Of a stretch of 64,000 nt of DNA, positions 22,776 through 50,345 are shown one piece after another. This stretch comes from Candidatus Omnitrophota bacterium (GTDB lineage Bacteria; Omnitrophota; Gorgyraeia; Pluralincolimonadales; Pluralincolimonadaceae), in NCBI GenBank assembly GCA_003141835.1, contig PLNR01000006.1, positions 142,558 to 206,557 of the forward strand. Direction: 5' to 3'. The notes below the pieces were generated by a model. That model ran no database searches and was not told the origin of the DNA. It saw only the letters and a program-made list of their open reading frames with translations. The translations under genes and the position numbers were made by a program. Within the stretch, counting starts at the first letter, position 1. Each line of letters starts with the position of its first letter.

Positions 22776-22822
22776 ATTTATGCTATAATTGGATGGTATA
22801 ATTATACCCCAAGGAGGACGCA
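22776..22822. promoter_or_regulatory. divergent promoter region (two TATAAT boxes, RBS AAGGAGGA for the plus-strand gene)
   Basis: TATAAT at 22784-22789 and 22797-22802. AAGGAGGA 5 nt upstream of ATG 22823. Confidence 0.35.
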
Positions 22823-23155
22823 ATGAAAACTGCTATTATTATGTTATCTGTTCTCTCTTTTACCCTTTTCGTGAGCCCGGCAACGGTCAAGGCCGAAGGC
22901 ACCAGCGGCACGCTCGCCGCGCAGGTAGATACGGTCACTGTGGCACAGACCGAGGGCGAGGATTCCACCGTTTCAGTTGTAGATGAATCCGGCGTCACGA
23001 TACTCTTTTATGTGACAGCCGCAACCGTCATCTCCGGCCCGATAGGCGAGCCGATAAGCCTCGGCAATATCAACCAGAACGACCCGGTCGAGATAGAATA
23101 CGATAATCTCGAGGGCGGGGTCGGGCTGGCGAAGTCAATAAAACTAACAGAGTAA
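22823..23155 (+). CDS. small secreted protein, paralog 1 of 3 (possible OB-fold periplasmic protein)
   Basis: Signal peptide. Shares the C-terminal pattern of hydrophobic and Gly positions with 25322-25636 and 25662-26000. Confidence 0.5.
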   Translation: MKTAIIMLSVLSFTLFVSPATVKAEGTSGTLAAQVDTVTVAQTEGEDSTVSVVDESGVTILFYVTAATVISGPIGEPISLGNINQNDPVEIEYDNLEGGVGLAKSIKLTE

Positions 23156-28580: not shown

Positions 28581-29012
28581 ATGGGCAAGATGAATAAAAT
28601 AATTACATTCCTGTCCGGCATATACCTGGCTGTATTCGGGGCGTTCCAGCTCGTCCGCCTCTTACCGCGTTATAATTTCATAATGGGGTTGACCCCCAGC
28701 CCGCATCACACGTTCCTGGCGGTGAACTTCGGCATCTTCTCGACCTTAGGCCTTTTATGCGTGATCATTGGATTGGGGCTCATATACAGGCAGGCCTGGG
28801 CGAGGAGCATGGTGATAATCGCGTCTATATTCTCGCTTTTCTTCGGGATAACTATCGTGGTATGCATGACATGGTTGTATTTTATGCTCCCTTACGGCGG
28901 GGTCGCGGTGAGCGAGACATACACCCTTTATTATTGGGTTTATCTTCTAATATGCCTCATCATAATGCCGGCGTTTTTTCTTATATTTTTTTCCAGGGAA
29001 AAGACGCTGTAA
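28581..29012 (+). CDS. hypothetical membrane protein (4 TM)
   Basis: Hydrophobic 143-aa ORF. Start placed at MGKMNK. Confidence 0.35.
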   Translation: MGKMNKIITFLSGIYLAVFGAFQLVRLLPRYNFIMGLTPSPHHTFLAVNFGIFSTLGLLCVIIGLGLIYRQAWARSMVIIASIFSLFFGITIVVCMTWLYFMLPYGGVAVSETYTLYYWVYLLICLIIMPAFFLIFFSREKTL

Positions 29013-29024
29013 GCCTGTTTTAAA

Positions 29025-30758
29025 CTACCAGCCCCCGCCTCCCCCTCCGCCGCCGCCACCTCCCCCGCCTCCCCCTCCGCCGCTGAAACCGGAGCTTGAA
29101 CCCGGAGCGACCGAAGAAGAAGATATGGAACTTGCGAGCGAACCTCCTAATGACGAAAAACCGGTGATGCCTCCGAACCTCGTTACGCCGATACCCGGCC
29201 CTCTATACCAAACCGGCGAGTATCCTTCGCCTCCCGTACCGGCGCGCGATAACACATCGGTGAATTTTTTCGCCCAGGCGTTCTCCAGGTCGAGCGCGAC
29301 AGCGTACGGCAGGTATTTCTCGAAAAGTTCCGGCGTCTTCGCCGGCGCGGCCATGCCTGCTATCTCGTCCTTTTCCGCCGTGCGGAGGTACATTCCGAAA
29401 CCTTCTATCTGGTCCATGACGGTCCTGCCTGCAAGCGTCGGCGCCTTAAGCAGCTGGTAGAAGATAAAATTAAGCGCGGCGAGAATAATAGATGATGCGA
29501 AAGTGCTTAAAGTATCCATGGACGATAATAACGCGACGGAGAGGATGGTAATAATAGATATCACCATGCCGGGGACAAAATATTGCGCGTTGGTCAGGAA
29601 ATATGTCTTCTCGAACTCCGTCTTTAGGGTATCCTTGAGCGAATCTATCGCCCCCGCTACTTCATCGTGATTGGCGTTCTCGAATTTGAAGTACTTCCGC
29701 TCCCCCATAAGCTCATCGGCTATGACCTTTTCTTCCGGGCTTAAGTTCGACGGATCCGCGGGACCGCGGTCTACGGAATAAGTTCCGTCCTCTTCAATTA
29801 TGGTGAAATACCTTTTGACCGCCATATTTATTACTGCCGAGGAGAAACACTTGGCATCATAACCCATATTTTTTATATAACGGATCGCGGACGGAGATAC
29901 GCCTTTCGGCGGCGCAAATAACGGGATTATGGTCCCTTTCGGCGGATTTTTGCCGAAGAGAGCCCAGGTAATGATGAAGTAAACAAAAAGCACGACGACA
30001 CCCAGCGCGCCGGCAGCCAAGCCGGGATTATCACTCAGGAAATACATCCATTTCTCCCGGGCGGTCAGCTCATGCACAAAACCTTTCGGCCAACCGACCA
30101 CGATCGTTAAGCCCTCGCGGGGGGCAAGCGGCCGTGTCGTCACAAAAACCGGCCTGCCCTCATTATCGAAGGATACATTAGAATCTTTCGCGTGCGAACC
30201 TAGCGGCCCGGTGTATTCATCTGTCTTTATCACGTCCCGGGCGATCCCCGCAGGGAGGACCACGGTCGCGGACGCGTTGAGGATCGGGAAATCCCACCCG
30301 TTACCCGTGACATTCCAATAGAGTTCATCGTGGTCCTTGAAAAATCCCAGCTGGCGGTTGGTGTCATATTTTATCGTATATGTATGGACTCCGGGCTGGA
30401 CATAAGTATTTTCGTTGCCTATGTAGACCCTTTCCCCGTTCGAGAGCGCGGCAGTATGATACGGCTCGGGCGTCCCGTCGCGCAGGACCTCTTTCACAGT
30501 AAAACCTACGGAATACCGGAGCGAGGTGCCGTTTTTGTAGATCGTATATTTTGTCGGGAAATCGCGGTATATGCCGTGCCTTATCCGGTAATTCTCGGCG
30601 TTTACCTTTATAGCCTCGATCACCGACATCGTCGAGTCCTGATGTACGGTAATGAGGCTGTCAAAGGAGAGTATGCTTTCGGAGGCACGGGAAACAGGCA
30701 AAGCAAAAAGGATAGCTATGAGGAAGAATACCGCGAAAAGGGATCTTTTCCCAAACAT
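29025..30758 (-). CDS. DUF2207-family membrane protein with C-terminal poly-glycine tail
   Basis: Signal peptide, large extracytoplasmic domain, TM region, then a run of about 17 Gly ending in W. LemA gene adjacent. Confidence 0.6.
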   Translation of the reverse strand: MFGKRSLFAVFFLIAILFALPVSRASESILSFDSLITVHQDSTMSVIEAIKVNAENYRIRHGIYRDFPTKYTIYKNGTSLRYSVGFTVKEVLRDGTPEPYHTAALSNGERVYIGNENTYVQPGVHTYTIKYDTNRQLGFFKDHDELYWNVTGNGWDFPILNASATVVLPAGIARDVIKTDEYTGPLGSHAKDSNVSFDNEGRPVFVTTRPLAPREGLTIVVGWPKGFVHELTAREKWMYFLSDNPGLAAGALGVVVLFVYFIITWALFGKNPPKGTIIPLFAPPKGVSPSAIRYIKNMGYDAKCFSSAVINMAVKRYFTIIEEDGTYSVDRGPADPSNLSPEEKVIADELMGERKYFKFENANHDEVAGAIDSLKDTLKTEFEKTYFLTNAQYFVPGMVISIITILSVALLSSMDTLSTFASSIILAALNFIFYQLLKAPTLAGRTVMDQIEGFGMYLRTAEKDEIAGMAAPAKTPELFEKYLPYAVALDLENAWAKKFTDVLSRAGTGGEGYSPVWYRGPGIGVTRFGGITGFSSLGGSLASSISSSSVAPGSSSGFSGGGGGGGGGGGGGGGGGW

Positions 30759-30768
30759 GGGACCTCCT

Positions 30769-31326
30769 TTATATTTTTACTTCGGGGGCCTGGCGCTCCG
30801 TCGCTAATTCTATTTCAAAAAATTCAGCTTTGCCAAAATGGAAAGAGCCGGCTATCATGCTGCTGGGAAAGGTCTGCGACAGGATATTATAATCGCGGAC
30901 CGTGCCGTTGTAATAACGGCGGGCCATCTGGAGGTTGTCCTCTATATCAACAAGGTTCTTGTGCAGGTCGAGGAAACTCTGGCTGGCTTTAAGTTCGGGG
31001 TACGCTTCTACTACTGCAAAAATTGATTTTAATGAGCGGGAGATCGCATTCTCCGGGCCGGCTTTATCCTGCGGCCCTTCCGCGGCTGTGGCTTTGGAAC
31101 GCAAAGCGGTGACTTCTTCTAGGGTCTTCCTTTCGAATTGCTTGTATCCTTTGACGGCCTCTACGAGGTTCGGGATGAGGTCTGCGCGGCGCTTAAGCTG
31201 GACGTCTATCCCGCTCCAGGCCTCTTTCATCAGGTTCTTGTATTTGATAAGGAGATTATAAGTAAAAACAGTCCATATTACCAGCCCGGCTAAAAGCAAT
31301 AACCCTGCGGTCCCGTATCCCAGCAT
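30769..31326 (-). CDS. lemA: LemA family protein
   Basis: N-terminal TM plus LemA-like helical region (NLLIKYKNLMKEAWSGIDVQLKRRADLIPNLVEAVKGY). Confidence 0.7.
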   Translation of the reverse strand: MLGYGTAGLLLLAGLVIWTVFTYNLLIKYKNLMKEAWSGIDVQLKRRADLIPNLVEAVKGYKQFERKTLEEVTALRSKATAAEGPQDKAGPENAISRSLKSIFAVVEAYPELKASQSFLDLHKNLVDIEDNLQMARRYYNGTVRDYNILSQTFPSSMIAGSFHFGKAEFFEIELATERQAPEVKI

Positions 31327-31335
31327 TTTTGCCTC

Positions 31336-32232
31336 CTACTTAGTAAGCGGTTTGCCGTCCAGCGGCGGGCTGATCTTCCCCACGTCCACACCAAACCTGT
31401 CGAGGATAGTCGGGGTGACGTCTGATTGGAAACCCTGCCTTATCCCCCTCGGGTCGTTCGTGGCCATGAAGACGTACGGTGCATAACCGTGGCCCTTTTG
31501 CCCCTCATCAAAACCGTGGTCGGCGGTCACATAGATGATCGTCGTATCGTATAATTTCAGGTCTTTAAGCTTTTTGACGATGTCGCCTGTCAACTTATCG
31601 CAGGCGATGAGCGCGTCGTTGTATTCTTTCGAATTCTCGCCGAATTCATGGCCCTTGCTGTCGATCGCGGCGAACTGCAGGAAAAAGAAGAACGGCCTTC
31701 CTTTGTATTCCTCGAGAAGCCTCTCCGCCTCGCTCGCGACCCTCTGGTCTTCGTTGAGGCCGTTCTTGAATACGTCGGTCTCCTTGGCGGCATTGTAATA
31801 CGGCTTATCGGGGCTGTCGGATTTAAAACGATGGCCCTTATTATAAAGTGCCACCGTCACGAATTTATCGTGCCCGAAATGGTCCTCGAGCCGCTCGAAT
31901 ATCGTATAGCCTTTCGGTATCGCCTGATATTTTTCGTTACTGCGGACGCCCGAGGTCTCGGCTTTATATCCGGTGAGTATCTGCGCGAAACCGGGCTCGG
32001 TCTCGGTCTGGTGGCCCTGGACGTCTATCTCGACGAACGAACCTTCTGACGATAATTTTTTGAGGTACGGGAGTTCGCCGCGGCCGAGGCATTCCTTCAC
32101 GTGGTTCAATTGCGCCCCGTCCCAGCCGATGAGTACTATATCTTTCGGCCGCTCGTTTAATCCCAGCGCATATGATGGGACCGTAATACAGAGCGCGGCG
32201 CAAAACGCCAGGAAAAGCGCAAACCTCTTCAT
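31336..32232 (-). CDS. secreted alkaline-phosphatase-superfamily enzyme (nucleotide pyrophosphatase/phosphodiesterase-like)
   Basis: Signal peptide. LIGWDGAQ and VTADHGFDE metal-binding motifs. Confidence 0.55.
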   Translation of the reverse strand: MKRFALFLAFCAALCITVPSYALGLNERPKDIVLIGWDGAQLNHVKECLGRGELPYLKKLSSEGSFVEIDVQGHQTETEPGFAQILTGYKAETSGVRSNEKYQAIPKGYTIFERLEDHFGHDKFVTVALYNKGHRFKSDSPDKPYYNAAKETDVFKNGLNEDQRVASEAERLLEEYKGRPFFFFLQFAAIDSKGHEFGENSKEYNDALIACDKLTGDIVKKLKDLKLYDTTIIYVTADHGFDEGQKGHGYAPYVFMATNDPRGIRQGFQSDVTPTILDRFGVDVGKISPPLDGKPLTK

Positions 32233-34010
32233 TTATTTACCAGTCCGCGTTTGGTGTATGTCGTGTGCAGGAGATGGTGCGACTTCTCCCCGAGCGGCTC
32301 GACCAGGAATTCCTTGTAGATAGCTGTGATCGAGGGGTTCTCGTGCGATTTCCTTATCGGTTTGCCCAGGTCTTCCCTGTATATCGCTTCAGCCCTCTTC
32401 TTTCTCACTTCGGTATTCGTGGGGATGGGCTGTCCGCCGCCGCCGAGGCATCCGCCCGGGCAGCACATTATCTCTATGAAATGGTACGGGGACTTGCCGG
32501 CCTTGACCTCGTCCAGCAATTTCCGCGCGTTCGCCAGGCCGCTCGCGACCGCGACCTTTACCTTCAGCCCGTCGACGTCTACCTCTGCGGATTTTATCCC
32601 TTCGAAGCCGCGGACGGCCTGAAAATCGAGCTTGTCGAGCTTCTTCTTCGTGATGACTTCATACGCGGTCCTTAACGCGGCTTCCATGACGCCGCCTGTC
32701 GCGCCGAATATTACGGCCGCGCCGGTCGACTCGCCGAGCGGATTGTCAAAATCCTCATCGGGAAGTTTATTGAAATCGATGCCCGCTTCTTTTATCATCT
32801 GGGCGGCTTCCCTCGTCGTAAGGACGTAATCGACGTCCGGGAACTTGTCGCTCTCCTTGTATGCCTTCTTGTCTTTCCAGTATTCGAAGGCACTGTCCAT
32901 CTCCGGGCGTTTCGCCTCGAATTTCTTCGCGGTGCAAGGCATTATCGAGACGACTACCATATCTTTCGCGTCTACGCCGGCCTTCTCCGCGTAATAGGTC
33001 TTCGCGACCGCGCCGAACATCTGCTGCGGCGATTTGCAGGTCGAAAGATGGTCGAGGAGATCCGGGAAAAAATGCTCGCTGAACTTTATCCATCCCGGGG
33101 AGCACGATGTTATAAGGGGAAGCACGCCTTTATTCTTTATCCTGTCGATGAGCTCGAAGCCCTCCTCCATAATGGTGAGGTCTGCGGTAAACTGCGTGTC
33201 GAAGACTTTATTGTACCCGAGCCTGCGGAGCGCCGCGGTCATCTTTCCGGTAACAAGCGTCCCGGCAGGCAGGCCGAATTCCTCGCCTATCGCGGCCCTT
33301 ACAGCCGGCGCGGTCTGGACTACGACGGTCTTCTTCGGATCGTGTATAGCCTTCCATACGTCGTCTATCGAGCTCTTCTCTGTCAATGCGCCTGTCGGGC
33401 AGACGAGTACGCACTGGCCGCAGTTAGCGCATTCGACCTTGCCGAGCCCTTCGTTAAAAAATGTCGAGACGATCGTCTTGCTGCCCCTGTTCACGAAATC
33501 GATAGCATTGACCGACTGGACCTGCGAGCAGACCGCGATGCAGCGTCCGCAAAGTATGCATTTGTTGGGGTCGCGTATGATCGACGGGGAGCTCAGGTCG
33601 ACGTCGAAGTCGCGTTTCCGCGTCTTCGCGAACCTGACATCCCTTATGCCGAGGTCCGAGGCCAAGATGCGCAATTCGCAGGTCTCGTTTTTGTCGCAGG
33701 TCGGGCATTCTTTCGGATGGCCCGCAAGGAGGAGTTCGACGTTCATCCTGCGCGCGCCGCGGACTGCCGGCGTGTTTGTGTATATCTCCATACCTTCGGA
33801 GACCTTCGTTATGCACGCCCTCAAAAGGCTCTTGGCGTTCCTGACTTCGACGCAGCAGACGCCGCACGAAGCGTTCTCGGATATCCCCTCGAGATAGCAG
33901 AGCGTCGGTATATCGATCCCCGCTTCCCTGGCCGCCTTAAGTATCGTCGTCCCTTCGGCCGCTTTGTATTCTTTCCCGTCTATCTTTATGTTCATTATCC
34001 TGTCGGCCAT
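32229..34010 (-). CDS. hydA: [FeFe]-hydrogenase catalytic subunit HydA (N-terminal 2Fe-2S and 4Fe-4S ferredoxin domains plus H-cluster domain)
   Basis: H-cluster motifs MPCTAKKFE and EIMCCPGGCLGGGGQP are present. Motif 1 reads TSCSPGW instead of TSCCPxW. Start taken at MADRIM, overlapping the hydB stop. Confidence 0.8.
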   Translation of the reverse strand: MADRIMNIKIDGKEYKAAEGTTILKAAREAGIDIPTLCYLEGISENASCGVCCVEVRNAKSLLRACITKVSEGMEIYTNTPAVRGARRMNVELLLAGHPKECPTCDKNETCELRILASDLGIRDVRFAKTRKRDFDVDLSSPSIIRDPNKCILCGRCIAVCSQVQSVNAIDFVNRGSKTIVSTFFNEGLGKVECANCGQCVLVCPTGALTEKSSIDDVWKAIHDPKKTVVVQTAPAVRAAIGEEFGLPAGTLVTGKMTAALRRLGYNKVFDTQFTADLTIMEEGFELIDRIKNKGVLPLITSCSPGWIKFSEHFFPDLLDHLSTCKSPQQMFGAVAKTYYAEKAGVDAKDMVVVSIMPCTAKKFEAKRPEMDSAFEYWKDKKAYKESDKFPDVDYVLTTREAAQMIKEAGIDFNKLPDEDFDNPLGESTGAAVIFGATGGVMEAALRTAYEVITKKKLDKLDFQAVRGFEGIKSAEVDVDGLKVKVAVASGLANARKLLDEVKAGKSPYHFIEIMCCPGGCLGGGGQPIPTNTEVRKKRAEAIYREDLGKPIRKSHENPSITAIYKEFLVEPLGEKSHHLLHTTYTKRGLVNK

Positions 34011-37000
34011 TAGATTGCCTCCTTCACATCGCATCTCAAGCAGCGGGTAGTCTCAGTTTTTACGTCATCCCAGCACAATCCGAGCGATACTTCTTTAAAG
34101 TTCTTCTTCCTGGCTTTCACCGAGAGCGTCTTCGGATACCTCCTGCCCTCAGGGCTCGGCTCGAGCGGGACAATGTTCTTATATTTGAATTTCTTCGACA
34201 GCATCTCTATCCTCTTCTCCCCCATGAGGTCAAGGTCGATCGCCTCGGCAGCTTTTCTGCCTTGGGCCATCGCCTCGACCGCGGTCGCAGGCCCCATGAC
34301 AAGGTCGCCGCCCGCATAAATTTTAGGATCGACGGTCTGGAGCGTGGATTTATCTACTTTTATCGTACCGTCCTCGTTGGCGTCGATGCCGACATTGCGT
34401 ATGAAGCCCGAGTCGACGCGCTCGCCTATGGCGAGTATGACCGAGTTGCAGGTGATCGCCTCGTATGTATCGGTCGCGACAGGCCTTCTCCTGCCGGATA
34501 GGTCGAATTCACCCGGCTTCATCTTGCTTATCTCTATGCCCTTCACTTTTCCTTTTTCGCCGATGATGGATTTCGGAGCGGCAAGGAAGATGAATTTAAT
34601 TCCTTCATGCTCGGCTTCTTTGATCTCTTCTTTATTCGCAGGCATATCCGCTTTCTCGCGGCGGTAGACTACCGTGACGTCGCTGCCGAACCTGAAAGCG
34701 GTCCTGGCCGCGTCTATGGCGACGTTACCGGCGCCGATTATCGCTACTTTCTTGCCTATCGCCGGTTTCTTTCCGGTTGCCACCTGCTCTAAGTATTCGG
34801 TCCCGCGCAGGACTCCTTTAAGGTCCCTGCCGGGGATGTCGAGGTCCATCTCTTTATACGCGCCCGTCGCGAGGAAGATCGTGTCGAACGAACTCTCGAG
34901 TTCACGCAATTTCTTCTCGCTGACTTTAGAGTTAAAAATGAACTTCACCCCGAAGTCCTTGATGAACTTAATCTCCCTTTCAAGGACGTCCTTCGGCAGC
35001 CTGTATGACGGTATGCCGTACATCAGGACGCCGCCGGCCTTCGGTTTCTCTTCGTACACTGTCACCGAATGGCCGAGCCGCGCCAGGTAATAAGCCGCGG
35101 TAAGTCCGGCCGGGCCAGCGCCGACTACGGCGATCTTTTTCCCGGTCGCAGGCAGTTTCTCTTTCAATAACCTGCGCATGACCGGCTTGTCCTTGCCGTA
35201 TTTGTGCATATTATCGGCGACGAAGCGGTGTATCTCGCCCTGGGATACCGGATCGTCGATATCCTCCCTCCTGCAGCGCATCTTGCAATGGAAATGGCAT
35301 ATCCTTCCCGAACTTGCCGGGAAAGGATTGTCGCGCAGGATAAGGTCATACGCGTCGTCCATCTGCTTTTCGTTCACCAATTCGAGGAAGCCCGGGATGT
35401 TCATATGGAGCGGGCAGCTGTTCTCGCACGGAGATAGGAACAGCGACTGGCAAACGCCTGCGTCGCATCTCTTGTCCCTTATGTGCTCCTCGTATTCGTC
35501 CCTGAAATATTTCAGCGTCGTAAGGACCGGGTTCGGCGCTGTCTGGCCGAGGCCGCATATCGCCGTATCCTTTATGACCTTGCCGAGGTCTTCGAGGGTC
35601 TTGATGTTTTCCATCTTGCCCCTTCCCTCGGTTATGTCCTTTAAGATCTTCAACGCCTGCTGTAGCCCCTCGCGGCACGGCGTGCACTTGCCGCACGACT
35701 CGGAAGTGGTGAATTCTATGAAATAGCGGGCGACATCGACCATGCAATTGTCCTGGTCCATGACGACCATACCGCCTGAGCCGAGTATCGCGCCGAGCTG
35801 CGCGAGGTTCTCGTAATCTATCTTGGAATTAAAAAGCGACGCCGGGATGCATCCGCCTGAAGGGCCGCCTGACTGGACCGACTTGATGACCTTATTCTTG
35901 CCGCTACCCTCGCCCATCTGGTAGATGAGAGAAAGTATCGGCGAGCCGAATGGCAGTTCCACAAGCCCCGTATTCTTCACCTTGCCTACGAGCGAAAATA
36001 CTTTTGTGCCGGCGCTCGCCGACGTGCCTGTCTGCGCGAACCACTGGCCGCCCCTGGCGATTATCGCCGGGACGTTGCTTAATGTCTCGACATTATTTAT
36101 GGTCGTGGGTTTGTCCCATAATCCCTTCTCCGCCGGGAAAGGAGGCCTGGGCCTCGGACGGCCGGGCTTGCCTTCGAGCGAGAATATGAGCGCCGTCTCC
36201 TCGCCGCAGACGAACGCGCCCGCGCCCTCGACTATCTGGATGTCAAAACTAAAATTTGTCCCCATTATATTCTTCCCGAGGAAACCCCACTCCTCGGCCT
36301 GGACGAGCGCCTTCTTTATCCTCTGGACCGCCAATGGGTATTCGGCGCGGATGTAGATTATCCCGGCGGTAGCGCCCATCGTATAAGCGGCTATCGCGAT
36401 GCCCTCTATCAGCATGTGCGGGTCGCTCTCTATCTCGTTGCGGTTCATGTAAGCGCCCGGGTCGCCTTCGTCGGCGTTGCACGCTACAAATTTTTGGTCG
36501 GCCTTTATGCCGCGCATGATCTCCCATTTCCTCCACGGCGGAAAACCCGCGCCGCCCCTGCCCCTCAACTTCGAGATCTTGAGCTCTTCTATGATCTTCT
36601 CAGGGGTCATGCTAGTGATGGCTTTATATAACGACTGGTAACCGCCGACCGCTATGTAATCGTCTATGTTCTCGGGGTCTATGAGTCCGCAGTCCCTCAG
36701 GACTATCTTCTTTTGCCCCTTAAAGAACGGCACCTCGTTCCAGATCGGGACTCCTGGCCAACCACGCCCGTATATCACCTTTCCGGTGATGTGGTCCCAT
36801 TCCTCGATCTTGCATAATACCCTTTCCTCATATATGTCGCCCTTCATAGTTTTTTCAACTATCTTCGCGGCGTCCTTCGGTTTGACCTTAGAGAGGATGA
36901 TAAGCGGTTTCCCGGGCATATAAATATTTACCACCGGCTCGTCGGCGCAGAAACCGAAACAGCCGACCTTTCCGAGGGATATCTCGGCCTTCTTCCTGCG

Positions 37001-37153
37001 CAGCGATTTCTCGAGTTCCTTATATACCTCGTCGGCGCCGTTCCCGATGCCGCAGGTGCCCATGCCCACGGAGATCCGCGGCCTGTGCGACAATATCTGC
37101 CTTAGCCTTTTATCGCGTTCGCTGTTCAATTGTTCAAGATTGGCTATGTTCAT
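34010..37153 (-). CDS. hydB: HydB (NuoF-like flavoprotein, Complex1_51K) fused to a GltD-like FAD/NAD(P)H oxidoreductase domain, 1047 aa
   Basis: N-terminal thioredoxin-like 2Fe-2S region, GGAGFP FMN/NADH site, FeS Cys motifs. Then C-x-C-rich linker, VAVVGAGPAGLTAAYYLARLG and a second AIIGAGNVAIDAART Rossmann motif typical of GltD/NfnB. Confidence 0.8.
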   Translation of the reverse strand: MNIANLEQLNSERDKRLRQILSHRPRISVGMGTCGIGNGADEVYKELEKSLRRKKAEISLGKVGCFGFCADEPVVNIYMPGKPLIILSKVKPKDAAKIVEKTMKGDIYEERVLCKIEEWDHITGKVIYGRGWPGVPIWNEVPFFKGQKKIVLRDCGLIDPENIDDYIAVGGYQSLYKAITSMTPEKIIEELKISKLRGRGGAGFPPWRKWEIMRGIKADQKFVACNADEGDPGAYMNRNEIESDPHMLIEGIAIAAYTMGATAGIIYIRAEYPLAVQRIKKALVQAEEWGFLGKNIMGTNFSFDIQIVEGAGAFVCGEETALIFSLEGKPGRPRPRPPFPAEKGLWDKPTTINNVETLSNVPAIIARGGQWFAQTGTSASAGTKVFSLVGKVKNTGLVELPFGSPILSLIYQMGEGSGKNKVIKSVQSGGPSGGCIPASLFNSKIDYENLAQLGAILGSGGMVVMDQDNCMVDVARYFIEFTTSESCGKCTPCREGLQQALKILKDITEGRGKMENIKTLEDLGKVIKDTAICGLGQTAPNPVLTTLKYFRDEYEEHIRDKRCDAGVCQSLFLSPCENSCPLHMNIPGFLELVNEKQMDDAYDLILRDNPFPASSGRICHFHCKMRCRREDIDDPVSQGEIHRFVADNMHKYGKDKPVMRRLLKEKLPATGKKIAVVGAGPAGLTAAYYLARLGHSVTVYEEKPKAGGVLMYGIPSYRLPKDVLEREIKFIKDFGVKFIFNSKVSEKKLRELESSFDTIFLATGAYKEMDLDIPGRDLKGVLRGTEYLEQVATGKKPAIGKKVAIIGAGNVAIDAARTAFRFGSDVTVVYRREKADMPANKEEIKEAEHEGIKFIFLAAPKSIIGEKGKVKGIEISKMKPGEFDLSGRRRPVATDTYEAITCNSVILAIGERVDSGFIRNVGIDANEDGTIKVDKSTLQTVDPKIYAGGDLVMGPATAVEAMAQGRKAAEAIDLDLMGEKRIEMLSKKFKYKNIVPLEPSPEGRRYPKTLSVKARKKNFKEVSLGLCWDDVKTETTRCLRCDVKEAI

Positions 37154-37671
37154 TTCTTCTTACCTCCCCGGCTGAGCTCTTTTACCATCCTTGATAATCT
37201 CCCTGTGTCCATATGGACAAATATTTTGCCGTCCAGGACAACGACCGGCGCGAGCGCGCATTGGCCGAAGCAGGCGACCGTCCTCACCGTGAATTTATTA
37301 TCGGGCGTCGTATAGAACGACTCGCCCTCGTCAAAAACCCCTTTTATCTTCAATATGCTTTCGAGATGCTCTAACAATGCCTTTGAACCCTTCGTGTGGC
37401 AGGCCGTCCCCCTGCATACTATTATCGAATGCTCGCCCTGCGGTTTAAGGTTAAAAAATGCGTAAAAAGTGGCGACGCTGTAGATCTTCGAGGCCGGCAG
37501 GTCGAGGCTCCCGGCTATGTATTCAAGCGTCTCCCTTGGGAGATATTTATGCCTGTGGAGCTCCTGCGCCTCTTCGAGGATACAAAGGACGTCGCCCGGC
37601 CCTCCCTTATATTTCTCGATTATCCTGTCCAGCGATTTCGTATCGACGTCTTTTTCCAAAGTTGCTTTCAT
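37150..37671 (-). CDS. hydC: HydC / NuoE-like thioredoxin-fold [2Fe-2S] subunit
   Basis: CRGTACH...CFGQCALAP motifs. Confidence 0.75.
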   Translation of the reverse strand: MKATLEKDVDTKSLDRIIEKYKGGPGDVLCILEEAQELHRHKYLPRETLEYIAGSLDLPASKIYSVATFYAFFNLKPQGEHSIIVCRGTACHTKGSKALLEHLESILKIKGVFDEGESFYTTPDNKFTVRTVACFGQCALAPVVVLDGKIFVHMDTGRLSRMVKELSRGGKKK

Positions 37672-38306
37672 ACACGTTCTCCTTTTAATTTATATATCAG
37701 GCCCTGAAGCTCTGAGGCCATATCTACGTTCGAGACTGAAATTTTTTTGGGTAACATGAGGTTTACCGGCGCGAAGTTCAATATCGCCTTTACGCCGCAG
37801 GCTGCGAGCTCCTCGCCGACTTCCTGCGCCTTATCGGCCGGGACCGCGAGGATAGCTATCTTTATCCCCTTTTTCCTTAATACGCCCCTCATCGACTTGG
37901 CGTCTTCTATCGTTATGCCCTTGCGGACCTTGCCTATCCTTTCAGGGTCATTATCGAATGCGGCGTTGATCTGGAGGTTAGATTCCGTGAAACCGGGGTA
38001 TCCCAGGAGGGCTGAGCCGAGCTTGCCGGCCCCGACGATGGCTATCTTCCACGCTACGTCGGCGCCGAGGATCTTTTCTATCTCTTTTGTAAGCGCGCTT
38101 GTGCCGTAGCCGACGCCGCGCTTTCCGAAGCCGCCGAAATAAGAGAGGTCCTTCCTGAACTGGACTGACGAGACATTGAGGAACTCGGTGATGTCCTCAG
38201 ATGAGGCGACGTCCACTCTCTTCTTCTCAAGCATCCTTAAGCTTCTAAGGTATAGGCTTAAACGGCTTGCTGTATCCTGGGGAATGTACTTTTTAGTTTT
38301 GGGCAT
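37668..38306 (-). CDS. rex: redox-sensing transcriptional repressor Rex
   Basis: N-terminal winged helix (RLSLYLR) plus Rossmann GAGKLG. Overlaps hydC by 4 nt. Confidence 0.8.
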   Translation of the reverse strand: MPKTKKYIPQDTASRLSLYLRSLRMLEKKRVDVASSEDITEFLNVSSVQFRKDLSYFGGFGKRGVGYGTSALTKEIEKILGADVAWKIAIVGAGKLGSALLGYPGFTESNLQINAAFDNDPERIGKVRKGITIEDAKSMRGVLRKKGIKIAILAVPADKAQEVGEELAACGVKAILNFAPVNLMLPKKISVSNVDMASELQGLIYKLKGERV

Positions 38307-38317
38307 TCAAAAATACT

Positions 38318-38335
38318 TTGTTACGATTTTCACAA
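38318..38335. promoter_or_regulatory. candidate Rex operator (TTGTTACGATTTTCACAA)
   Basis: Close match to the TTGTGAA-N4-TTCACAA Rex box consensus, immediately upstream of the rex start. Confidence 0.55.
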
Positions 38336-38410
38336 TCTAATTAATTATACCATATAATCCTTAAATGTCACGAAAATTATTTGCTGCGGGAGGGCTGCGG
38401 CGGGACCGGC

Positions 38411-39484
38411 TTAGACGTTAAATCTTATGTTTATTATATCCCCGTCCTCTACTATATATTCTTTGCCCTTGAGGTAGAGCTTTCCGGCTTCCTTGACCTT
38501 CTCCTCGCTGCCGAGCCCTTCGAGGTCGGCGAATTTAATGACCTCTGCGCGGATGAAGCCCTTCTGCAGGTCGGAATGTATCGCGCCTGCCGCCTCGGGC
38601 GCCGAGGAATTGCGCTTTACCGGCCATTGCCTTACCTCGTCCTCACCTACGGTGAAGAACGATATGAGGTTGAGCGCCTGTATGCAAAGGCGGCTGAGCA
38701 TATTTATTGCCGGCTCCTCTATCCCGAGCGCGGAAAGGAACTCCTGCTGCTCCTTCTCCGTCTCTAGGGAGGCGATCTCGGATTCGACCTTGGCCGAGAC
38801 GAGCATCACCTCGATCTTTAAATGTTCGTATCTTTTCTTCAGTTCGTCCAGGAGCGCCTTGTTCTTCAGGTCGTCTTCCGAGACGTTCACGGCCAGTATC
38901 ATCTCCTTTAACGTCACGAAAGGATAGCTGGCGATCACCCTCTTCTCCTCGGGTTTAAGTTCAAGGAGCCTGAGCGGAAGTTCTTTTTCGATATGGGCTT
39001 TTATGTGAGCCACGACCTCCCTCTCCTTCGCCTTTACCTCGTCCTTGGCCTTCCTGAGGTCCAGGTCAAGTTTTTCGAGGCGTTTCTCCGCGAAGATGAG
39101 GTCATGGAGGATGAGTTCGGAATTGACGCTGTCTATGTCGCGCTTGGGGTCGACCGTGCCGTTTATGTGGTAGACCGAATCGTCCTTAAAGCCCCTTACG
39201 ACATGGCATATGGCGTCGGTTTCGGCGATATCTTTAAATATGTCACCTTTGGTTATGGCGTCTTTTTCTATTTTAGGGAGGAGCTCTATCTCTATCCTGG
39301 CCCTGACGTTCTTCTTGGGCTTATAGAGCGCGACGAGCTTGTCGTAACGGGGATCCTTGATCTCGGCGATGCTCTTGATGTTCTTGTTCGAGGCAAGGTC
39401 CTTCTCCGAGATCTTGTGGTTTGTCAGGAGTTCGAATAAGGTCTTCTTGCCGGTCTGTGGCAGGCCTATAATACCGATCTTCAT
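38411..39484 (-). CDS. YchF/Obg-family GTPase-like protein with C-terminal TGS-like domain
   Basis: G1 GLPQTGKKT, coiled-coil insertion, C-terminal YIVEDGDIINIRFNV. Confidence 0.55.
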   Translation of the reverse strand: MKIGIIGLPQTGKKTLFELLTNHKISEKDLASNKNIKSIAEIKDPRYDKLVALYKPKKNVRARIEIELLPKIEKDAITKGDIFKDIAETDAICHVVRGFKDDSVYHINGTVDPKRDIDSVNSELILHDLIFAEKRLEKLDLDLRKAKDEVKAKEREVVAHIKAHIEKELPLRLLELKPEEKRVIASYPFVTLKEMILAVNVSEDDLKNKALLDELKKRYEHLKIEVMLVSAKVESEIASLETEKEQQEFLSALGIEEPAINMLSRLCIQALNLISFFTVGEDEVRQWPVKRNSSAPEAAGAIHSDLQKGFIRAEVIKFADLEGLGSEEKVKEAGKLYLKGKEYIVEDGDIINIRFNV

Positions 39485-39500: not shown

Positions 39501-40793
39501 TTAAACGGGAGCGGAAGACAACCACGAAAACTTGCGGTTGTTCCACTTCCATTCTTTTACGATGAAATATCCCATGAAGCGCAGCATCCCGTTCCTGAAA
39601 TGCATCCTCATGAGCAAGGAGAGTGACGTCCATACCGAATAATACTTGGTATAGGCCTTTAGGACGCTTAACTGCAGGTCCCTGGCCGATATCAGTTTCG
39701 GCTTAAAGACTATGTGCTGGCCGTCGTAGAGGTTCCAGTCCTTTGTGAATATCCTTTTCTGGGCTTCCAGGTCGTGATAGACCTTCGTCCCCGGGAAAGG
39801 GGTCAATACCATCATCTGGATGGTGTCTATCTTCTGTTTCACCGCGAACCTGAGCGTCTCCCATACGGTCTTAATGCTGTCGTCATCGCCGCCCAGGACG
39901 AACATCCCGTGGACCTTGATATTCCTTTTATGGAACGCGCGGATAGCGTCTATGATCTGCGCTACCGTCTGTTTCTTGTCATAGGCGGCGAGGGTCTTCT
40001 CGTTGACCGACTCGATGCCCACGCATACGCCGATGCACCCGGCGTCGGACATGAGTTTGAGCATCCGGTCGTCCCTGGTGACGTCGCAGCGGACCTGGCA
40101 TGTCCAGTTCCTTATATTGCTCTTGAGCAAAAGCTCAAGCAATTTGTATGTGCGCGAAGGTTTGGCGGCGAAATTGTCGTCGCAGAAAAATATCGACTTC
40201 TTGTCCCTGTTCTTTAACTCGCCCATCACGTTCTCGGCGCTCCTGAAACGGTATTCGCGCCCGAACATCTTCGTGACCGAGCAGAAACTGCAGTCGTAAG
40301 GGCAGCCCCTGGACGTCGAGATGGGCCTCGCCAAAGAGCGCGACTTGTCGCCCATTATCAATGAAAAATCCGGGTACGGCAGGGCGTCGAGGTCCTTTAC
40401 CGGCCTGCCCTTTACGATCGGTTCCGTTATCCTGCCTTCGGCGATATCGACGATGACCTCTTCGGCCTCGCCGACAACGACCTGCCTGGCGTATTTTATG
40501 GCCTCTTCCGGGATAAGGCTGGCGTGCACCCCGCCCATTATCACTTTTTCCCTGGGAAATTGGGCCGCTATCTCGTATCCGCGCTTGGCGGTCGAGGTCA
40601 GGATCGAGATCCCTACCAGGTCCGCTTCCAGCTTGGAGTAATCCGGCTTGAATATATCCTCATTATATATCTCGACCTCATGCCCGCGGGCTTTAAGTAT
40701 GGTACCCAGATATATCGGTCCCAAAAGTGGCATGGATACTTTGCTGTATACATTCGCTTCTGTCGAGCGCGGTTCGATAAATACTATCTTCAT
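39501..40793 (-). CDS. B12-binding-domain radical SAM protein
   Basis: N-terminal B12-binding-like domain plus radical SAM motif CPYDCSFC. Confidence 0.75.
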   Translation of the reverse strand: MKIVFIEPRSTEANVYSKVSMPLLGPIYLGTILKARGHEVEIYNEDIFKPDYSKLEADLVGISILTSTAKRGYEIAAQFPREKVIMGGVHASLIPEEAIKYARQVVVGEAEEVIVDIAEGRITEPIVKGRPVKDLDALPYPDFSLIMGDKSRSLARPISTSRGCPYDCSFCSVTKMFGREYRFRSAENVMGELKNRDKKSIFFCDDNFAAKPSRTYKLLELLLKSNIRNWTCQVRCDVTRDDRMLKLMSDAGCIGVCVGIESVNEKTLAAYDKKQTVAQIIDAIRAFHKRNIKVHGMFVLGGDDDSIKTVWETLRFAVKQKIDTIQMMVLTPFPGTKVYHDLEAQKRIFTKDWNLYDGQHIVFKPKLISARDLQLSVLKAYTKYYSVWTSLSLLMRMHFRNGMLRFMGYFIVKEWKWNNRKFSWLSSAPV

Positions 40794-41245: not shown

Positions 41246-42223
41246 TTATTTGAAACTGTATTTCTTTATGAACTTCACGATCTCGGAAACGCTCGCCTCG
41301 GCCATGCCTATGCAGGTGTCGGCGCAGCCGTAATACAGCCTCAGGCGGTCGCCATCGACCACGGCAGAGCTCGGGAAGAGGACGTTCGGGACGTCGCCTA
41401 CGCGCTCGTACATCTCGGACGGATACATCAGGTAATCCCGCGTCCTGTAAAGCACCTTCCATGGCTTTTTAAGGTCCAAAAGCGCGCCGCCGGCCGAGTA
41501 GATATAGCCGTTACAGCTCGTCCAGACGCCGTGGTATATGAGCAGCCAACCGTCTTTTGTCCTTATGGGATGCGGCCCGGGGCCAACCTTTGTCGATTGC
41601 CAGCCGCCTTTGGGCCCGAATACGAACCTGTGGTGGCCCCAGTGGACCAGGTCCGGGCTCTCGGCGTAGAATACGTCGCCGAACGGGGTATGCCCCCTGT
41701 CGCTCGGCCTGTGGAGCATCGCGAACTTGCCGTCTATCTTCTCCGGGAAGATGACGCAGTTGCGGTTGGCCGGGGGGAGCGGGTTCTCCAGCTGCTTGAA
41801 CGCCTTGAAATCCTTGGTCGTGGCAAGGCCTATGCACGGGCCCTGGGCGCCGGCGTTGCACCATGTAATGTAATAGGTGTCGCCTAACTTTGTGACGCGC
41901 GGGTCGTAGCTATGGTCGGTCACGAAGACCTCGGGATCGCCGCTCTTCATCTTTATGGGAGCGGCTTCTATGTCCCACTTGATCCCGTCCTTGCTCCTGC
42001 CGAGATGGAGGGTGTAGTTCAAGTCGATCTCATCGACGCGGAATATGCCCCGGTATTCGGCGCCGAAGGCGATGATGGCGCTATTGTGGATGGAGTTAGC
42101 GCGGGGAACGGCTTTCGCCGTTATGATAGGATTGCCTCTGTAACGCTTAAAAACTGTATCGTTAGCCATTAACTTCTCCTCGTATGGCTCCCTTACCCGA
42201 ATTGTTTTAAAGTATACTAGCAA
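41246..42223 (-). CDS. GH130-family glycoside phosphorylase/hydrolase
   Basis: YRGNPIIT, beta-propeller-like repeats, about 325 aa, consistent with GH130. Confidence 0.65.
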   Translation of the reverse strand: MLVYFKTIRVREPYEEKLMANDTVFKRYRGNPIITAKAVPRANSIHNSAIIAFGAEYRGIFRVDEIDLNYTLHLGRSKDGIKWDIEAAPIKMKSGDPEVFVTDHSYDPRVTKLGDTYYITWCNAGAQGPCIGLATTKDFKAFKQLENPLPPANRNCVIFPEKIDGKFAMLHRPSDRGHTPFGDVFYAESPDLVHWGHHRFVFGPKGGWQSTKVGPGPHPIRTKDGWLLIYHGVWTSCNGYIYSAGGALLDLKKPWKVLYRTRDYLMYPSEMYERVGDVPNVLFPSSAVVDGDRLRLYYGCADTCIGMAEASVSEIVKFIKKYSFK

Positions 42224-43463: not shown

Positions 43464-44588
43464 TTAAAGCAACTCACTTGAGACCGTGTCGCAGAAGAGG
43501 AACCCTTTCTTCGTGAGCGATACCGCGGCGGCCCTGCCTTTGGCTTTCTTATATTTTATGAGGCCCGCGCCGGTAAGTTTCCGCAGGGCATCCGCCTCAA
43601 GCTCGCCCAGGGCGAACCCGGTCTTCTTTTTGAACCAGCTGAAATCTATCCCTTCGGCAGTCCTTATCTTTACCGCCGCAGTTTCTTTCGCCTTGCGCTC
43701 GCCGGTAAGCCGCTCGGATGAAACGATAGTGCTCTTCCCGGCATTGGCCCTATTGATGTACTCCCAGACATCGGGCACATGCCTCTTCCTGATCCCGCCG
43801 ATATACGAGACAGCCGACGGTCCGAGGCCTATATATTCATCGTTGCGCCAATAATTGAGGTTGTGCCTGCATTCAAAACCTTTTTTGGCGAAATTCGACA
43901 CTTCGTAATGCCGGAAACCGTGCCTGGGGAGATACCCGATCGCGAAGGAATACATCTGGGCGGTGCATTCCTCGTCGACAGGGATGATATTCCCGCATTT
44001 CCTCGCGTTATAAAGCGTTGTCCCTTTTTCATAGGTCAGGCCGTAGCATGAGATATGCGTGACCGGTAATTTTACTGCCCGCGCCAATTCGGAGTAACAG
44101 TCATTAAGTGTTTCGCCGGGCGCGCCGAAGATAAGGTCTATGTTGAGGTCGGCGAAACCTTTCTTCTTTGCCAGCATAACCGAGTCGACCGCCTTTTTGG
44201 CGCTATGGATCCTGCCCAGCCTCTTTAGCTTCCTGTCGTCGAAAGACTGGACCCCGATGCTCAACCTGTTGGCCCCTTCGTCCAATAAGAGGCGCAGCTT
44301 CCCGGCGTCAAGGCTTTCAGGGTTCGCCTCGACCGTGAACTCGGCTCCTTCGGCGGCCAATCTTCGGGCGGCGCGCAGAAGTTTTTTCAACAACGGACTA
44401 CCAAGCGCGCTGGGGGTGCCTCCGCCGATAAATACGGTAGAGACGCTGCTGTTAATGCCGTTTATTTGCGCGGCAAGCGCGTCAACGTAAGCGGCTGCCG
44501 GGCCTTCTTCGTAAGCGATGCTGTAGAAATCGCAATAACCGCATTTTTTCGCGCAAAAGGGTATGTGCACATATAATGAAGGCGTCAT
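43464..44588 (-). CDS. hemW: radical SAM heme chaperone HemW (HemN-like)
   Basis: HIPFCAKKCGYCDF. Start taken at the internal Met MTPSLYVHIPF. Confidence 0.7.
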   Translation of the reverse strand: MTPSLYVHIPFCAKKCGYCDFYSIAYEEGPAAAYVDALAAQINGINSSVSTVFIGGGTPSALGSPLLKKLLRAARRLAAEGAEFTVEANPESLDAGKLRLLLDEGANRLSIGVQSFDDRKLKRLGRIHSAKKAVDSVMLAKKKGFADLNIDLIFGAPGETLNDCYSELARAVKLPVTHISCYGLTYEKGTTLYNARKCGNIIPVDEECTAQMYSFAIGYLPRHGFRHYEVSNFAKKGFECRHNLNYWRNDEYIGLGPSAVSYIGGIRKRHVPDVWEYINRANAGKSTIVSSERLTGERKAKETAAVKIRTAEGIDFSWFKKKTGFALGELEADALRKLTGAGLIKYKKAKGRAAAVSLTKKGFLFCDTVSSELL

Positions 44589-44659
44589 TTTATTTTTCTC
44601 TTGCATTATACCGTATTTCCTATATAATTGTAAACCATAAAACATCAAGGAGGTTTACA

Positions 44660-49406: not shown

Positions 49407-50345
49407 TTATTTCAACGGCCTAATGTCAAATACGGTTATCTCCGGCCTGACCAGGAACCTTACCCTGATGCCGAACTTCCCTTCGGTCCCTATGCCGCGG
49501 TTCACATAGAGGACCGTATTCCCGACCTTGTATTCCCCTGCTTCGTATCTCTTGCCGTATTTTGAAAGCGTGATTATGGCCCCGTAAAAAGGCAGCGCCA
49601 CCTGGCCGCCGTGCGTGTGGCCGGCAAGATACAAGTCGACATTCGAGTTCTTCACATCTTCGATGAGGTCTGGCCTATGATACAGGAATATGCTGTAATA
49701 CCCGCGCGGCACATTCTTCAACACGGGGAACCAATACATGCCATGCTCGAAGTTTACCCCCGAGATGAAAACGGTATCACCGTCCTTGTTTATCTTCTCG
49801 ATCCTGCCGTCCAGGACGCTAAAATCGGTGCCGCCGAAAAGGTCAATGCCGCGCAGGAACCAGTAATCATAATTCCCTGTCACGGCGTATTTCCCTATAC
49901 CCGCCTTCAGGCTCTTCATGGTCTTCTTAAATACGGGCAGCGCCTTCGAGGCATTTACCGTATCCCCGGTAAAAACTATGATGTCGGGTTTCAGGGCGTT
50001 GACTATCTCTACTATTTTTTTCTCGTTTATTCCTTTAGGGTCGGTATGCAAGTCCGACAGCTGGACTATGCGGAGGCTGGCGTGGGATAGTTTTGGGGTC
50101 TTTATCTCTACCGTCTTCACGTCTATCCAATGCGGTTCTATGAGGAGGCCATACAGGAAACAAAGGATGCCGGCTGCCGCAACTATGTGTACGGCTATCG
50201 CAGGCTTGGTCAGGAAACCTGAAGGGCCTTCTTTGCGCCCTAACTTATGGAGGAGCAGCTTTGATATCAGCTGCCCCTCCTTGATGTATATTGCGAGGAC
50301 AAACGCCAGAAAAACGCTGAGCGATACGAATTCCCGGATCAGCAT
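49407..50345 (-). CDS. membrane-anchored metallophosphoesterase (calcineurin-like)
   Basis: GDTVN, GNYDYW and GHTHGG motifs. Confidence 0.7.
   Translation of the reverse strand: MLIREFVSLSVFLAFVLAIYIKEGQLISKLLLHKLGRKEGPSGFLTKPAIAVHIVAAAGILCFLYGLLIEPHWIDVKTVEIKTPKLSHASLRIVQLSDLHTDPKGINEKKIVEIVNALKPDIIVFTGDTVNASKALPVFKKTMKSLKAGIGKYAVTGNYDYWFLRGIDLFGGTDFSVLDGRIEKINKDGDTVFISGVNFEHGMYWFPVLKNVPRGYYSIFLYHRPDLIEDVKNSNVDLYLAGHTHGGQVALPFYGAIITLSKYGKRYEAGEYKVGNTVLYVNRGIGTEGKFGIRVRFLVRPEITVFDIRPLK

Follow-up and report, generated by a model that had tools for sequence, protein, structure and literature searches.

A window of 64,000 nucleotides from a Candidatus Omnitrophota bacterium (assembly GCA_003141835.1, contig PLNR01000006.1, positions 142,558 to 206,557; coordinates below are those of the window) was analysed for a predicted trimeric [FeFe]-hydrogenase operon in which the NuoF-like HydB subunit is fused to a GltD/NfnL-like flavoprotein module. 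Based on open reading frames and Pfam matches, rex, hydC, hydB and hydA are four tightly packed minus-strand genes, lying at the coordinates and in the operon order proposed in an initial annotation of the same DNA, which was made from the letters alone.

37668-38306, minus strand: rex, 212 amino acids, Pfam Put_DNA-bind_N and CoA_binding
37150-37671, minus strand: hydC, 173 amino acids, NuoE/BfuC-like, Pfam 2Fe-2S_thioredx (E 1e-39)
34010-37153, minus strand: hydB, 1047 amino acids, NuoF-like and GltD/NfnL-like fusion
32229-34010, minus strand: hydA, 593 amino acids, [FeFe]-hydrogenase catalytic subunit

The 4-nt overlaps reported between these genes are present as ATGA at the rex/hydC and hydC/hydB junctions, but for hydB and hydA the overlap is 1 nt (TAATG) with the ATG at 34010 taken as the hydA start, or 25 nt in the longest hydA open reading frame, which starts 24 nt further upstream at 34034. 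The start at 34010 is most likely, since a Shine-Dalgarno sequence (GAAGGAGG) precedes this ATG and the resulting length of 593 amino acids fits that of the homologues (592 amino acids). With contiguous hydC, hydB and hydA joined by overlapping stop and start codons, the locus has the gene adjacency of HydABC-type enzymes, and its content of guanine plus cytosine (0.53-0.57) is even across the fusion point. We propose that a single predicted promoter transcribes the hydrogenase genes together with the repressor Rex.

Pfam divides HydB into Complex1_51K (residues 193-362, E 1e-40), NADH_4Fe-4S (473-557, E 4e-35), Fer4_20 (564-652) and Pyr_redox_2 (673-965). In phmmer searches of the PDB, residues 23-572 could be aligned over their full length to the B subunits of all solved Bfu-type enzymes (E 1e-163 to 1e-191), namely HydB of A. 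mobile, A. woodii, Thermoanaerobacter kivui and Thermotoga maritima, NfnB of Caldicellulosiruptor saccharolyticus and Thermococcus sibiricus, and StnB of Sporomusa ovata. These alignments, together with the Complex1_51K and NADH_4Fe-4S domains, uphold the NuoF-like assignment of HydB. Residue conservation was judged in 121 homologous HydB sequences. The parts of the protein, from N- to C-terminus, are as follows.

36824..37087, minus strand: N-terminal thioredoxin-like domain with the B5 site (residues 23-110; Cys34, Cys65, Cys69)
35486..36676, minus strand: NuoF/BfuB core with the FMN/NAD(H) site and the B1 [4Fe-4S] cluster (residues 160-556)
35450..35485, minus strand: hinge with the B2 Zn/[2Fe-2S] site (residues 557-568; His557, Cys563 and Cys568, with Cys470)
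34139..35437, minus strand: GltD/NfnL-like module (residues 573-1005; Fer4_20 and Pyr_redox_2)
34013..34138, minus strand: C-terminal segment, the permuted first part of Fer4_20 (residues 1006-1047; Cys1038 and Cys1041, RCLRCD)

Three Cys in the N-terminal domain follow the pattern of NfnB and StnB (9bov_B, 9n5u_B, 8oh5_B), unlike 7q4v_B and 7t2r_B, and Cys114 is mostly conserved among the homologues. The motifs of the flavin mononucleotide (FMN)/NAD(H) site (GRGGAGFP and NADEGDPGA) and the B1 ligands (C487, C490, C493 and C533) are invariant, as are all four residues of the B2 site (H557, C563, C568 and C470). The hinge, H557-IRDKR-C563-DAGV-C568, aligns to HIRDKKCPAGVC of all solved BfuB chains; in these enzymes it binds Zn or [2Fe-2S] through a His and three Cys, the His being reported as characteristic of Bfu B subunits (PMC12018979). 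HydC, which has the thioredoxin-like [2Fe-2S] domain expected of BfuC, contributes four Cys (C86, C91, C134 and C138) for the C1 [2Fe-2S] cluster. The alignments show that HydC and the first 572 residues of HydB between them hold every predicted cofactor site of the Bfu flavobicluster core, i.e. FMN/NAD(H), B1, C1 and the B2 hinge. An SLBB domain (IPR019554) gave no Pfam match in HydB at E <= 1e-3; some homologues have PF10531.

In canonical enzymes the hinge leads into a ferredoxin-like domain (clusters B3 and B4), where ferredoxin docks (PMC10021017; PMC12018979), and the Bfu census of Schut et al. (2022) defines BfuB by this ferredoxin-type 4Fe-4S domain (PMC9304861). In the HydB of the window all BfuB alignments stop at residue 572, the GltD-type module begins 8 residues past the hinge, and neither a CX2CX2CX3CP ferredoxin motif, among all Cys of the protein, nor a Pfam Fer4 match was found, so that the domain of the census (IPR017896; B3/B4, two CX2CX2CX3CP motifs) is lacking. 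Because the BfuB alignments end after the hinge and the ferredoxin motif is absent, the predicted module is shown to replace the C-terminal 2x[4Fe-4S] ferredoxin-like domain of HydB and to be no simple addition.

The best solved relatives of the module are NfnA (9n5u_A, E 3e-114), 9bov_A, StnC (8oh5_C) and the bifurcating NfnL (5jca_L, E 2e-99), with matches of the NfnA/StnC type spanning E 3e-114 to 5e-100 and the small subunit of glutamate synthase reaching only ~1e-61. Identity to bifurcating NfnL is 40-41%. Two Rossmann motifs, GAGPAG (residues 678-683, flavin adenine dinucleotide, FAD) and GAGNVA (807-812, NADP(H)-type), are invariant in the 121 homologues, as are Y830-R831-R832, a YRR motif common to the NADPH-specific StnC, NfnA and NfnL. 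GxGxxA has been proposed as an NADP(H) signature in StnC (PMC7483475). With both motifs present, a second nucleotide site of NADPH type, as suggested by the initial annotation, is plausible. All seven predicted cluster Cys of the module (576, 580, 619, 623, 627, 1038 and 1041) and His642 are likewise invariant, with C576, C580, C1038 and C1041 as the predicted site of the distal cluster. His642 aligns with the residue that provides the non-Cys ligand to the cluster nearest the FAD; this residue is Glu in NfnL and Lys in both StnC (Lys170) and T. sibiricus NfnA (Lys165) (PMC10482914; PMC12018979). Taken together, the conserved residues show predicted sites for two [4Fe-4S] clusters, an FAD and an NADPH-type nucleotide in the module.

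The tail of HydB, its last 40 residues (including KKNFKEVSLGLCWDDVKTETTRCLRCD), aligns with the beginning of NfnL and also with the part of NfnA and StnC located behind their flavin domains. In its native order the protein matches only positions 28-111 of the Fer4_20 profile (68.5 bits), and the tail alone matches positions 1-30; when the tail was moved in silico to before residue 574, the match extended over positions 1-111 and rose to 92.2 bits. Based on this gain and on the alignment of the tail to NfnL and NfnA/StnC, the module is circularly permuted in the same way as in Nfn-Bfu/Stn enzymes. A chance resemblance of the tail was considered and is ruled out by the in silico un-permutation together with the contiguous NfnA/StnC alignment.

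An AlphaFold2 model of HydB, built from a 49-sequence alignment, has a mean predicted local distance difference test score (pLDDT) of 87 and a predicted template-modelling score of 0.82; it is confident across the junction, and the C-terminal tail reaches a pLDDT of 88-91. In Foldseek searches the N-terminal half retrieved NfnB, StnB and HydB with target template-modelling (TM) scores of 0.83-0.96, the complete NfnB aligning at TM 0.96 over 548 columns, and the C-terminal half retrieved NfnA, StnC and NfnL (5jca_L: TM 0.82, root-mean-square deviation 1.7 A, 424 columns). No solved chain found by Foldseek spans more than half of the model. The C-terminal GltD/NfnB-like module named in the initial annotation is therefore confirmed by Fer4_20, Pyr_redox_2, the alignments and the predicted fold, although its size is ~475 rather than ~450 amino acids once the permuted C-terminal segment is counted.

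HydA comprises the Pfam domains Fer2_4, NADH-G_4Fe-4S_3, two Fer4, Fe_hyd_lg_C (E 3e-101) and Fe_hyd_SSU, of which Fer2_4 and Fer4 are those expected of BfuA, with sites for an N-terminal [2Fe-2S], a His-ligated [4Fe-4S] and two further [4Fe-4S] clusters. All three H-cluster motifs (L1-L3) are present, as TSCSPGW, MPCTAKKFE and EIMCCPGGCLGG, which shows a complete predicted H-cluster site. The closest solved relative is HydA1 of A. woodii (7q4v_A, E 2e-207), which has the same TSCSPGW motif, and HydA scores 907 bits against a cut-off of 765 in the NCBIfam model NF040763 ('NADH-dependent [FeFe] hydrogenase, group A6'). These matches support a HydA of the HydABC type (HydDB group A3, NCBIfam group A6), in agreement with the earlier proposal. 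The TSCSP motif is found in 66 of the 66 HydA proteins partnered with a fusion-type HydB, where Ser (residue 304 here) replaces one Cys of [4Fe-4S]H. A defective H-cluster, as might be suspected from TSCSPGW in place of TSCCPxW, can be ruled out, given that A. woodii HydA1 has the same Ser; that enzyme is active and shows a normal H-cluster signature (PMC10021017). A separate feature of HydA is an extra Cys at residue 516, before the L3 Cys (MCCPGGC), which is shared by four of the 66 partner HydA proteins, most having Thr or Ser.

The fusion had been described as uncommon, which is not borne out. At least 120 full-length clusters (~1045-1060 amino acids, 60-96% identity) with the same Pfam architecture came up in a protein search, the top match (96% identity) coming from a Candidatus Omnitrophota metagenome-assembled genome (MAG). 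Source names of these homologues are 'FAD-dependent oxidoreductase' or 'NuoF', and no NCBIfam model fits the fused HydB above its cut-off. A scan of one genome per GTDB species, with the junction alignment (hinge and His-type Fer4_20) as query, yielded at least 541 related loci confirmed by tblastn; statements on loci below rest on the best 80 of these. All 80 span the junction in frame, with 62-98% identity over 121 residues. They belong to Omnitrophota, Bacteroidota (including Paludibacter, Proteiniphilum, Microbacter and the cultured Petrimonas sulfuriphila DSM 16547), Spirochaetota (including Rectinema and Treponema), Ignavibacteriota and Kryptoniota. The order hydC-hydB(fusion)-hydA was found in all of them wherever the contig extends, with hydC immediately upstream of hydB, and its retention across phyla supports probable selection on the unit. 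An assembly or frame artefact joining hydB to gltD, an a priori possibility in any metagenome assembly with nothing further in its favour, is untenable because the same in-frame junction recurs in 80 independent genomes; the full-length protein clusters, the invariant junction residues, the even composition and the confident model across the junction also stand against it.

More distant full-length NuoF-GltD fusions (35-53% identity) were recovered among representatives at 50% identity, all with the hinge and the RCLRCD tail. Among them, the clusters P0122-P0205 (35-47% identity) mostly have Lys or Glu at the position of His642, one has Gly, and some have degenerate B1 cysteines or no N-terminal domain, which suggests a larger and diversified superfamily. 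The architecture has been noticed previously. The genome paper of Vallitalea guaymasensis L81 (2018) described a trimeric [FeFe] hydrogenase with an enlarged HydB in which GltD replaces the two-[4Fe-4S] domain, and suggested a second NAD(P)H site (PMC6163223); a study of archaeal hydrogenases (2024) modelled HydB with a glutamate-synthase-like domain in hybrid complexes and proposed a low-potential acceptor (PMC11216029). GltD, fusions and glutamate synthase are not mentioned in the Bfu census (PMC9304861) or in the Hydrogenedentota hydrogenase paper. The window thus adds one more member to an uncharacterised family.

Upstream of rex, the predicted control region of the operon comprises two elements.

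38344..38371, minus strand: sigma-70-type promoter, -35 GTGACA, 16-nt spacer, TG-extended -10 TATAAT
38318..38335, minus strand: Rex-operator-like inverted repeat TTGTGAAAATCGTAACAA, a match to TTGTGAANNNNTTCACAA

The promoter, which has a TG extending its -10 element, matches the consensus at 11 of 12 positions and is the top match within 28800-38600. The predicted operator begins 9 nt downstream of the -10 element, and 12 nt separate its end from the rex ATG; the edge of the operator coincides with the end coordinate (38335) given for the operon in the initial annotation. It is the sole site in the window with two or fewer mismatches to TTGTGAANNNNTTCACAA, against 0.11 expected by chance. 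Similar sites with 1-3 mismatches lie upstream of rex in five other Omnitrophota loci (L002, L004, L005, L008 and L024), and ~2% of random 310-nt windows contain sites that do as well as these. Rex itself has a winged-helix and an NAD(H)-binding Rossmann domain (Pfam and NCBIfam) and passes several NCBIfam Rex cut-offs (e.g. NF003995, 253 bits against 126). An auto-regulated, NADH-responsive control of the whole operon by Rex is thus a well supported prediction from sequence. A rising NADH/NAD+ ratio would be expected to cause Rex to de-repress the operon, and the hydrogenase would act as a redox valve. Rex boxes upstream of hydC were not enriched over background in the Bacteroidota and Spirochaetota loci, and the Rex linkage is therefore lineage-specific. 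On the plus strand, a promoter-like match (TTCACA-18-TATAAT, 11 of 12 positions) at 38329-38358 shares positions with the Rex box and with the -10 region of the minus strand. It faces the ychF side and, given that no plus-strand gene lies close behind it, may have arisen incidentally from the palindromic, AT-rich sequence there.

The nearest characterised systems are the HydABC hydrogenases of A. woodii, T. kivui and T. maritima (7q4v, 8a6t, 7p5h), with which the present enzyme shares the three subunits, the hydC-hydB-hydA order, the Ser motif TSCSPGW of A. woodii HydA1, the C1 site of HydC, and the FMN, B1 and His/Cys hinge sites of HydB. It differs in that HydB has, instead of the ferredoxin-like domain (B3, B4), a 475-residue FAD/NADP(H) module, and in that its N-terminal domain has three Cys, as in NfnB and StnB, rather than the four of A. 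woodii HydB. The Nfn-Bfu/Stn enzymes (NfnABC of C. saccharolyticus and T. sibiricus, StnABC of S. ovata; 9bov, 9n5u, 8oh5) also carry an NADPH-binding GltD/NfnL-like module on a Bfu core, with the same permutation, an 'RCLxC' segment after the flavin domains and a similar N-terminal domain of the B subunit. In those enzymes, however, the module is inserted in an A subunit without an H-cluster and feeds the mid-potential branch, B keeps its ferredoxin-like domain and Lys serves as the non-Cys ligand to the proximal cluster, whereas in the present enzyme the module has taken over the position of that domain on the B subunit, the A subunit is a genuine hydrogenase and the ligand position holds an invariant His. 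The large subunit of NfnSL/NfnAB (Pyrococcus furiosus NfnI, 5jca_L; T. maritima, 4ylf_B) and GltD have the same fold, with two [4Fe-4S] clusters, FAD and an NADPH-type site, but occur as separate subunits whose Cys-rich segment is N-terminal instead of C-terminal; NfnL has Glu where the present module has His, and no partner of the NfnS type accompanies the latter. In the second trimeric hydrogenase of V. guaymasensis L81 (PMC6163223) and the archaeal hybrid [FeFe]/[NiFe] HydB (PMC11216029), a GltD-type domain follows the FMN/NADH domain of an enlarged HydB and takes over from the two-[4Fe-4S] domain; for both, a second NAD(P)H site has been suggested. The likeness to these is by description, since they are genome- or model-based remarks, and the archaeal HydB sits in a larger hybrid complex.

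Based on these comparisons, we consider the chances to be even that the soluble, Bfu-related [FeFe] hydrogenase of the HydABC type encoded by the operon couples H2 to both NAD(H) and NADP(H), with NADP(H) on the ferredoxin branch. The intact FMN, B1, C1 and hinge sites argue for a Bfu hydrogenase that works up to the low-potential exit, and since the nearest relatives of the module are non-bifurcating NADPH inputs, the most economical reading is that NADP(H) replaces ferredoxin. With its first cluster ligands only 8 residues past the hinge, the module's distal cluster would occupy the place of B3 in canonical enzymes, and the canonical path C1->B3->B4->ferredoxin would become C1->[4Fe-4S]->[4Fe-4S](His)->FAD->NADP(H). 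The complex would then couple H2 with NAD(H) at the FMN and with NADP(H) at the FAD, and ferredoxin would be no obligatory partner. In a fermenter the likely direction would be H2 evolution from NADH and NADPH. In vivo potentials are ~-280 mV for NADH and ~-380 mV for NADPH (PMC9304861, Table 1), and by our own calculation the joint oxidation of the two allows H2 up to ~100 Pa, compared with a few Pa for NADH alone; the benefit for fermenters living with H2 consumers would be real but modest. A stricter form, in which this branch of the Bfu lineage works independently of ferredoxin and makes H2 by confurcation of NADH and NADPH, or runs in reverse, is a serious possibility that we nevertheless hold to be somewhat improbable; here the His-ligated [4Fe-4S] cluster would permanently connect the low-potential exit of the core with a flavin that reduces NADP(H).

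A number of observations weigh against the coupling of H2 to both nucleotides as set out above. The predicted placement of the distal cluster near C1 and the hinge is proposed from adjacency in sequence only, and a His at the ligand position of the proximal cluster is without characterised precedent. Giving the low-potential branch to NADP+ would waste energy when H2 is oxidised, and the gain in the H2-evolving direction is modest, both of which count against the arrangement. The clusters of the module could still receive ferredoxin, as those of NfnL do. The substrates are inferred throughout, as no paper that we found assays such an architecture; the literature, of which our coverage was incomplete, offered passing genomic remarks and no biochemistry of a fusion-type enzyme. 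On the regulatory side, rex is linked to the hydrogenase in only part of the Omnitrophota loci and not in Bacteroidota or Spirochaetota, and the predicted operator deviates from the consensus at two positions.

A different enzyme would result if ferredoxin were still used, namely a combined hydrogenase and Nfn in which either the module's FAD is bifurcating, like that of NfnSL, or ferredoxin docks on the distal cluster. Such an enzyme would interconvert all four of H2, NAD(H), NADP(H) and ferredoxin, and might operate as an NADP-specific confurcating hydrogenase or as a transhydrogenase driven by hydrogen. The resemblance of the module to bifurcating NfnL, in identity (40-41%) and in fold (within 1.7 A), the conservation of the Arg that contacts FAD N5 in NfnL (R718, YGIPSYRLP) and the intact sites of the Bfu core are all compatible with this. 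The same Arg is, however, present in the closest NfnA/StnC modules, the FAD of which is non-bifurcating (PMC10482914; PMC12018979), no NfnS-like [2Fe-2S]/FAD partner is encoded in the operon or in the best 80 loci, and the canonical ferredoxin-docking domain is absent, which together make a ferredoxin-using hybrid unlikely. We attach similarly little weight to an uncoupled NAD(P)H-dependent hydrogenase, in which the two flavins would be independent points of entry or exit on one iron-sulfur wire and either nucleotide would be accepted. Non-bifurcating relatives of HydABC that use NADH alone are mentioned in the Bfu census (PMC9304861), nothing in the sequence proves coupling, and both nucleotide couples lie near that of H2 at low H2 pressure by our own calculation. 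On the other hand, the hinge His and Cys, the C1 site of HydC and the N-terminal B5 domain are all invariant, and the hinge His is reported to be absent from non-bifurcating homologues (PMC12018979). For canonical enzymes, a movement of HydC tied to NAD(H) binding has been described that gates the path to the C-terminal domain (PMC10021017), and such gating would couple the FMN and module sites.

HydDB recognises a group of hydrogenases termed 'glutamate synthase-linked'. The authors of the Vallitalea genome suggested a link between the module and glutamate metabolism (PMC6163223). We regard a link of the module to glutamate synthesis, and likewise a connection to another non-nucleotide acceptor such as polysulfide, as very improbable: a gene for the large subunit of glutamate synthase is neither found beside the operon in the window nor conserved in the best 80 loci, both Rossmann nucleotide motifs are invariant, and the nearest relatives are NADPH:iron-sulfur oxidoreductase modules (E 1e-114) as opposed to GltD proper (E 1e-61).

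The mechanism of HydABC and other Bfu enzymes is actively debated, in particular where low-potential electrons leave the core and where ferredoxin docks. A family in which the ferredoxin-docking domain has been exchanged for an NADPH flavoprotein module while the core is otherwise invariant bears on that debate and, if the stricter, ferredoxin-independent form is true, would constitute a natural experiment on where the low-potential branch exits the Bfu core. It would also represent a previously unrecognised H2 route by which fermenters of the Bacteroidota, Spirochaetota and Omnitrophota balance their NADPH pool. The initial annotation was sound in its observation and its domain-level description; it overstated the rarity of the fusion and missed the replacement of the ferredoxin-binding domain, and it is the latter that changes the mechanistic question. 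The census required a ferredoxin-type domain in BfuB (PMC9304861), so it probably passed over this family and its several hundred candidate species-level loci. Moreover, since pipelines label the fused HydB 'FAD-dependent oxidoreductase' or 'NuoF', metabolic models of these MAGs may mis-assign the electron carriers of H2 metabolism.

In ten of the Omnitrophota loci (L006-L009, L011, L013, L017, L023, L024 and L041) the fusion-type operon is followed directly by another hydCBA on its downstream side, at ~10.3-14.4 kb in each. The second HydB is ~580 amino acids long with a ferredoxin motif in all five cases inspected, and its HydA partner has TSCCPSW in the three in which the motif was found. 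The presence of a canonical hydCBA beside the fusion-type operon suggests that the two enzymes are not redundant. The window has no tandem hydCBA; as in the closest relatives, the place is filled by the following genes.

31336-32232, minus strand: phosphodiesterase/sulfatase-like metalloenzyme, 298 amino acids, signal-peptide-like N-terminus (MKRFALFLA...)
30769-31326, minus strand: LemA
29025-30758, minus strand: DUF2207

The ATG of the phosphodiesterase/sulfatase-like gene overlaps the hydA stop codon (ATGA). Only the closest relatives (L001 and L003-L005) have this trio conserved behind hydA, and no functional link between it and the hydrogenase is evident. In five other loci a stand-alone GltD/NfnL-like gene, the product of which is 37-41% identical to the module, is located upstream of hydC; it adjoins hydC in L012, L014, L016 and L054, where rex sits elsewhere, and lies ~1.2 kb upstream in L047.

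Among the larger open reading frames scanned in the window, no hydEFG maturases, nfnAB or second hydrogenase were found. Its two radical-SAM genes are of the HemW-like and B12-binding types, neither of which is a hydrogenase maturase. A 461-residue open reading frame at 13989-15374 on the minus strand matches no Pfam family at E <= 1e-5. The upstream neighbours of the operon and other large genes of the window are listed below.

19689-22823, minus strand: AddA-like UvrD helicase with a PD-(D/E)XK nuclease domain
38411-39484, minus strand: YchF GTPase, upstream neighbour of the operon
39501-40793, minus strand: B12-binding radical-SAM protein of unclear type, below all NCBIfam cut-offs, upstream neighbour
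41246-42223, minus strand: beta-1,2-mannobiose-phosphorylase-like protein, below cut-off, upstream neighbour
43464-44648, minus strand: HemW, upstream neighbour
46215-48773, minus strand: P-type cation ATPase
50345-52855, minus strand: GH3 glycosidase with a PA14 insert
53513-55651, minus strand: VIT-VWA protein

The helicase, ATPase, glycosidase and VIT-VWA genes are consistent with the ordinary context of a saccharolytic Omnitrophota genome.

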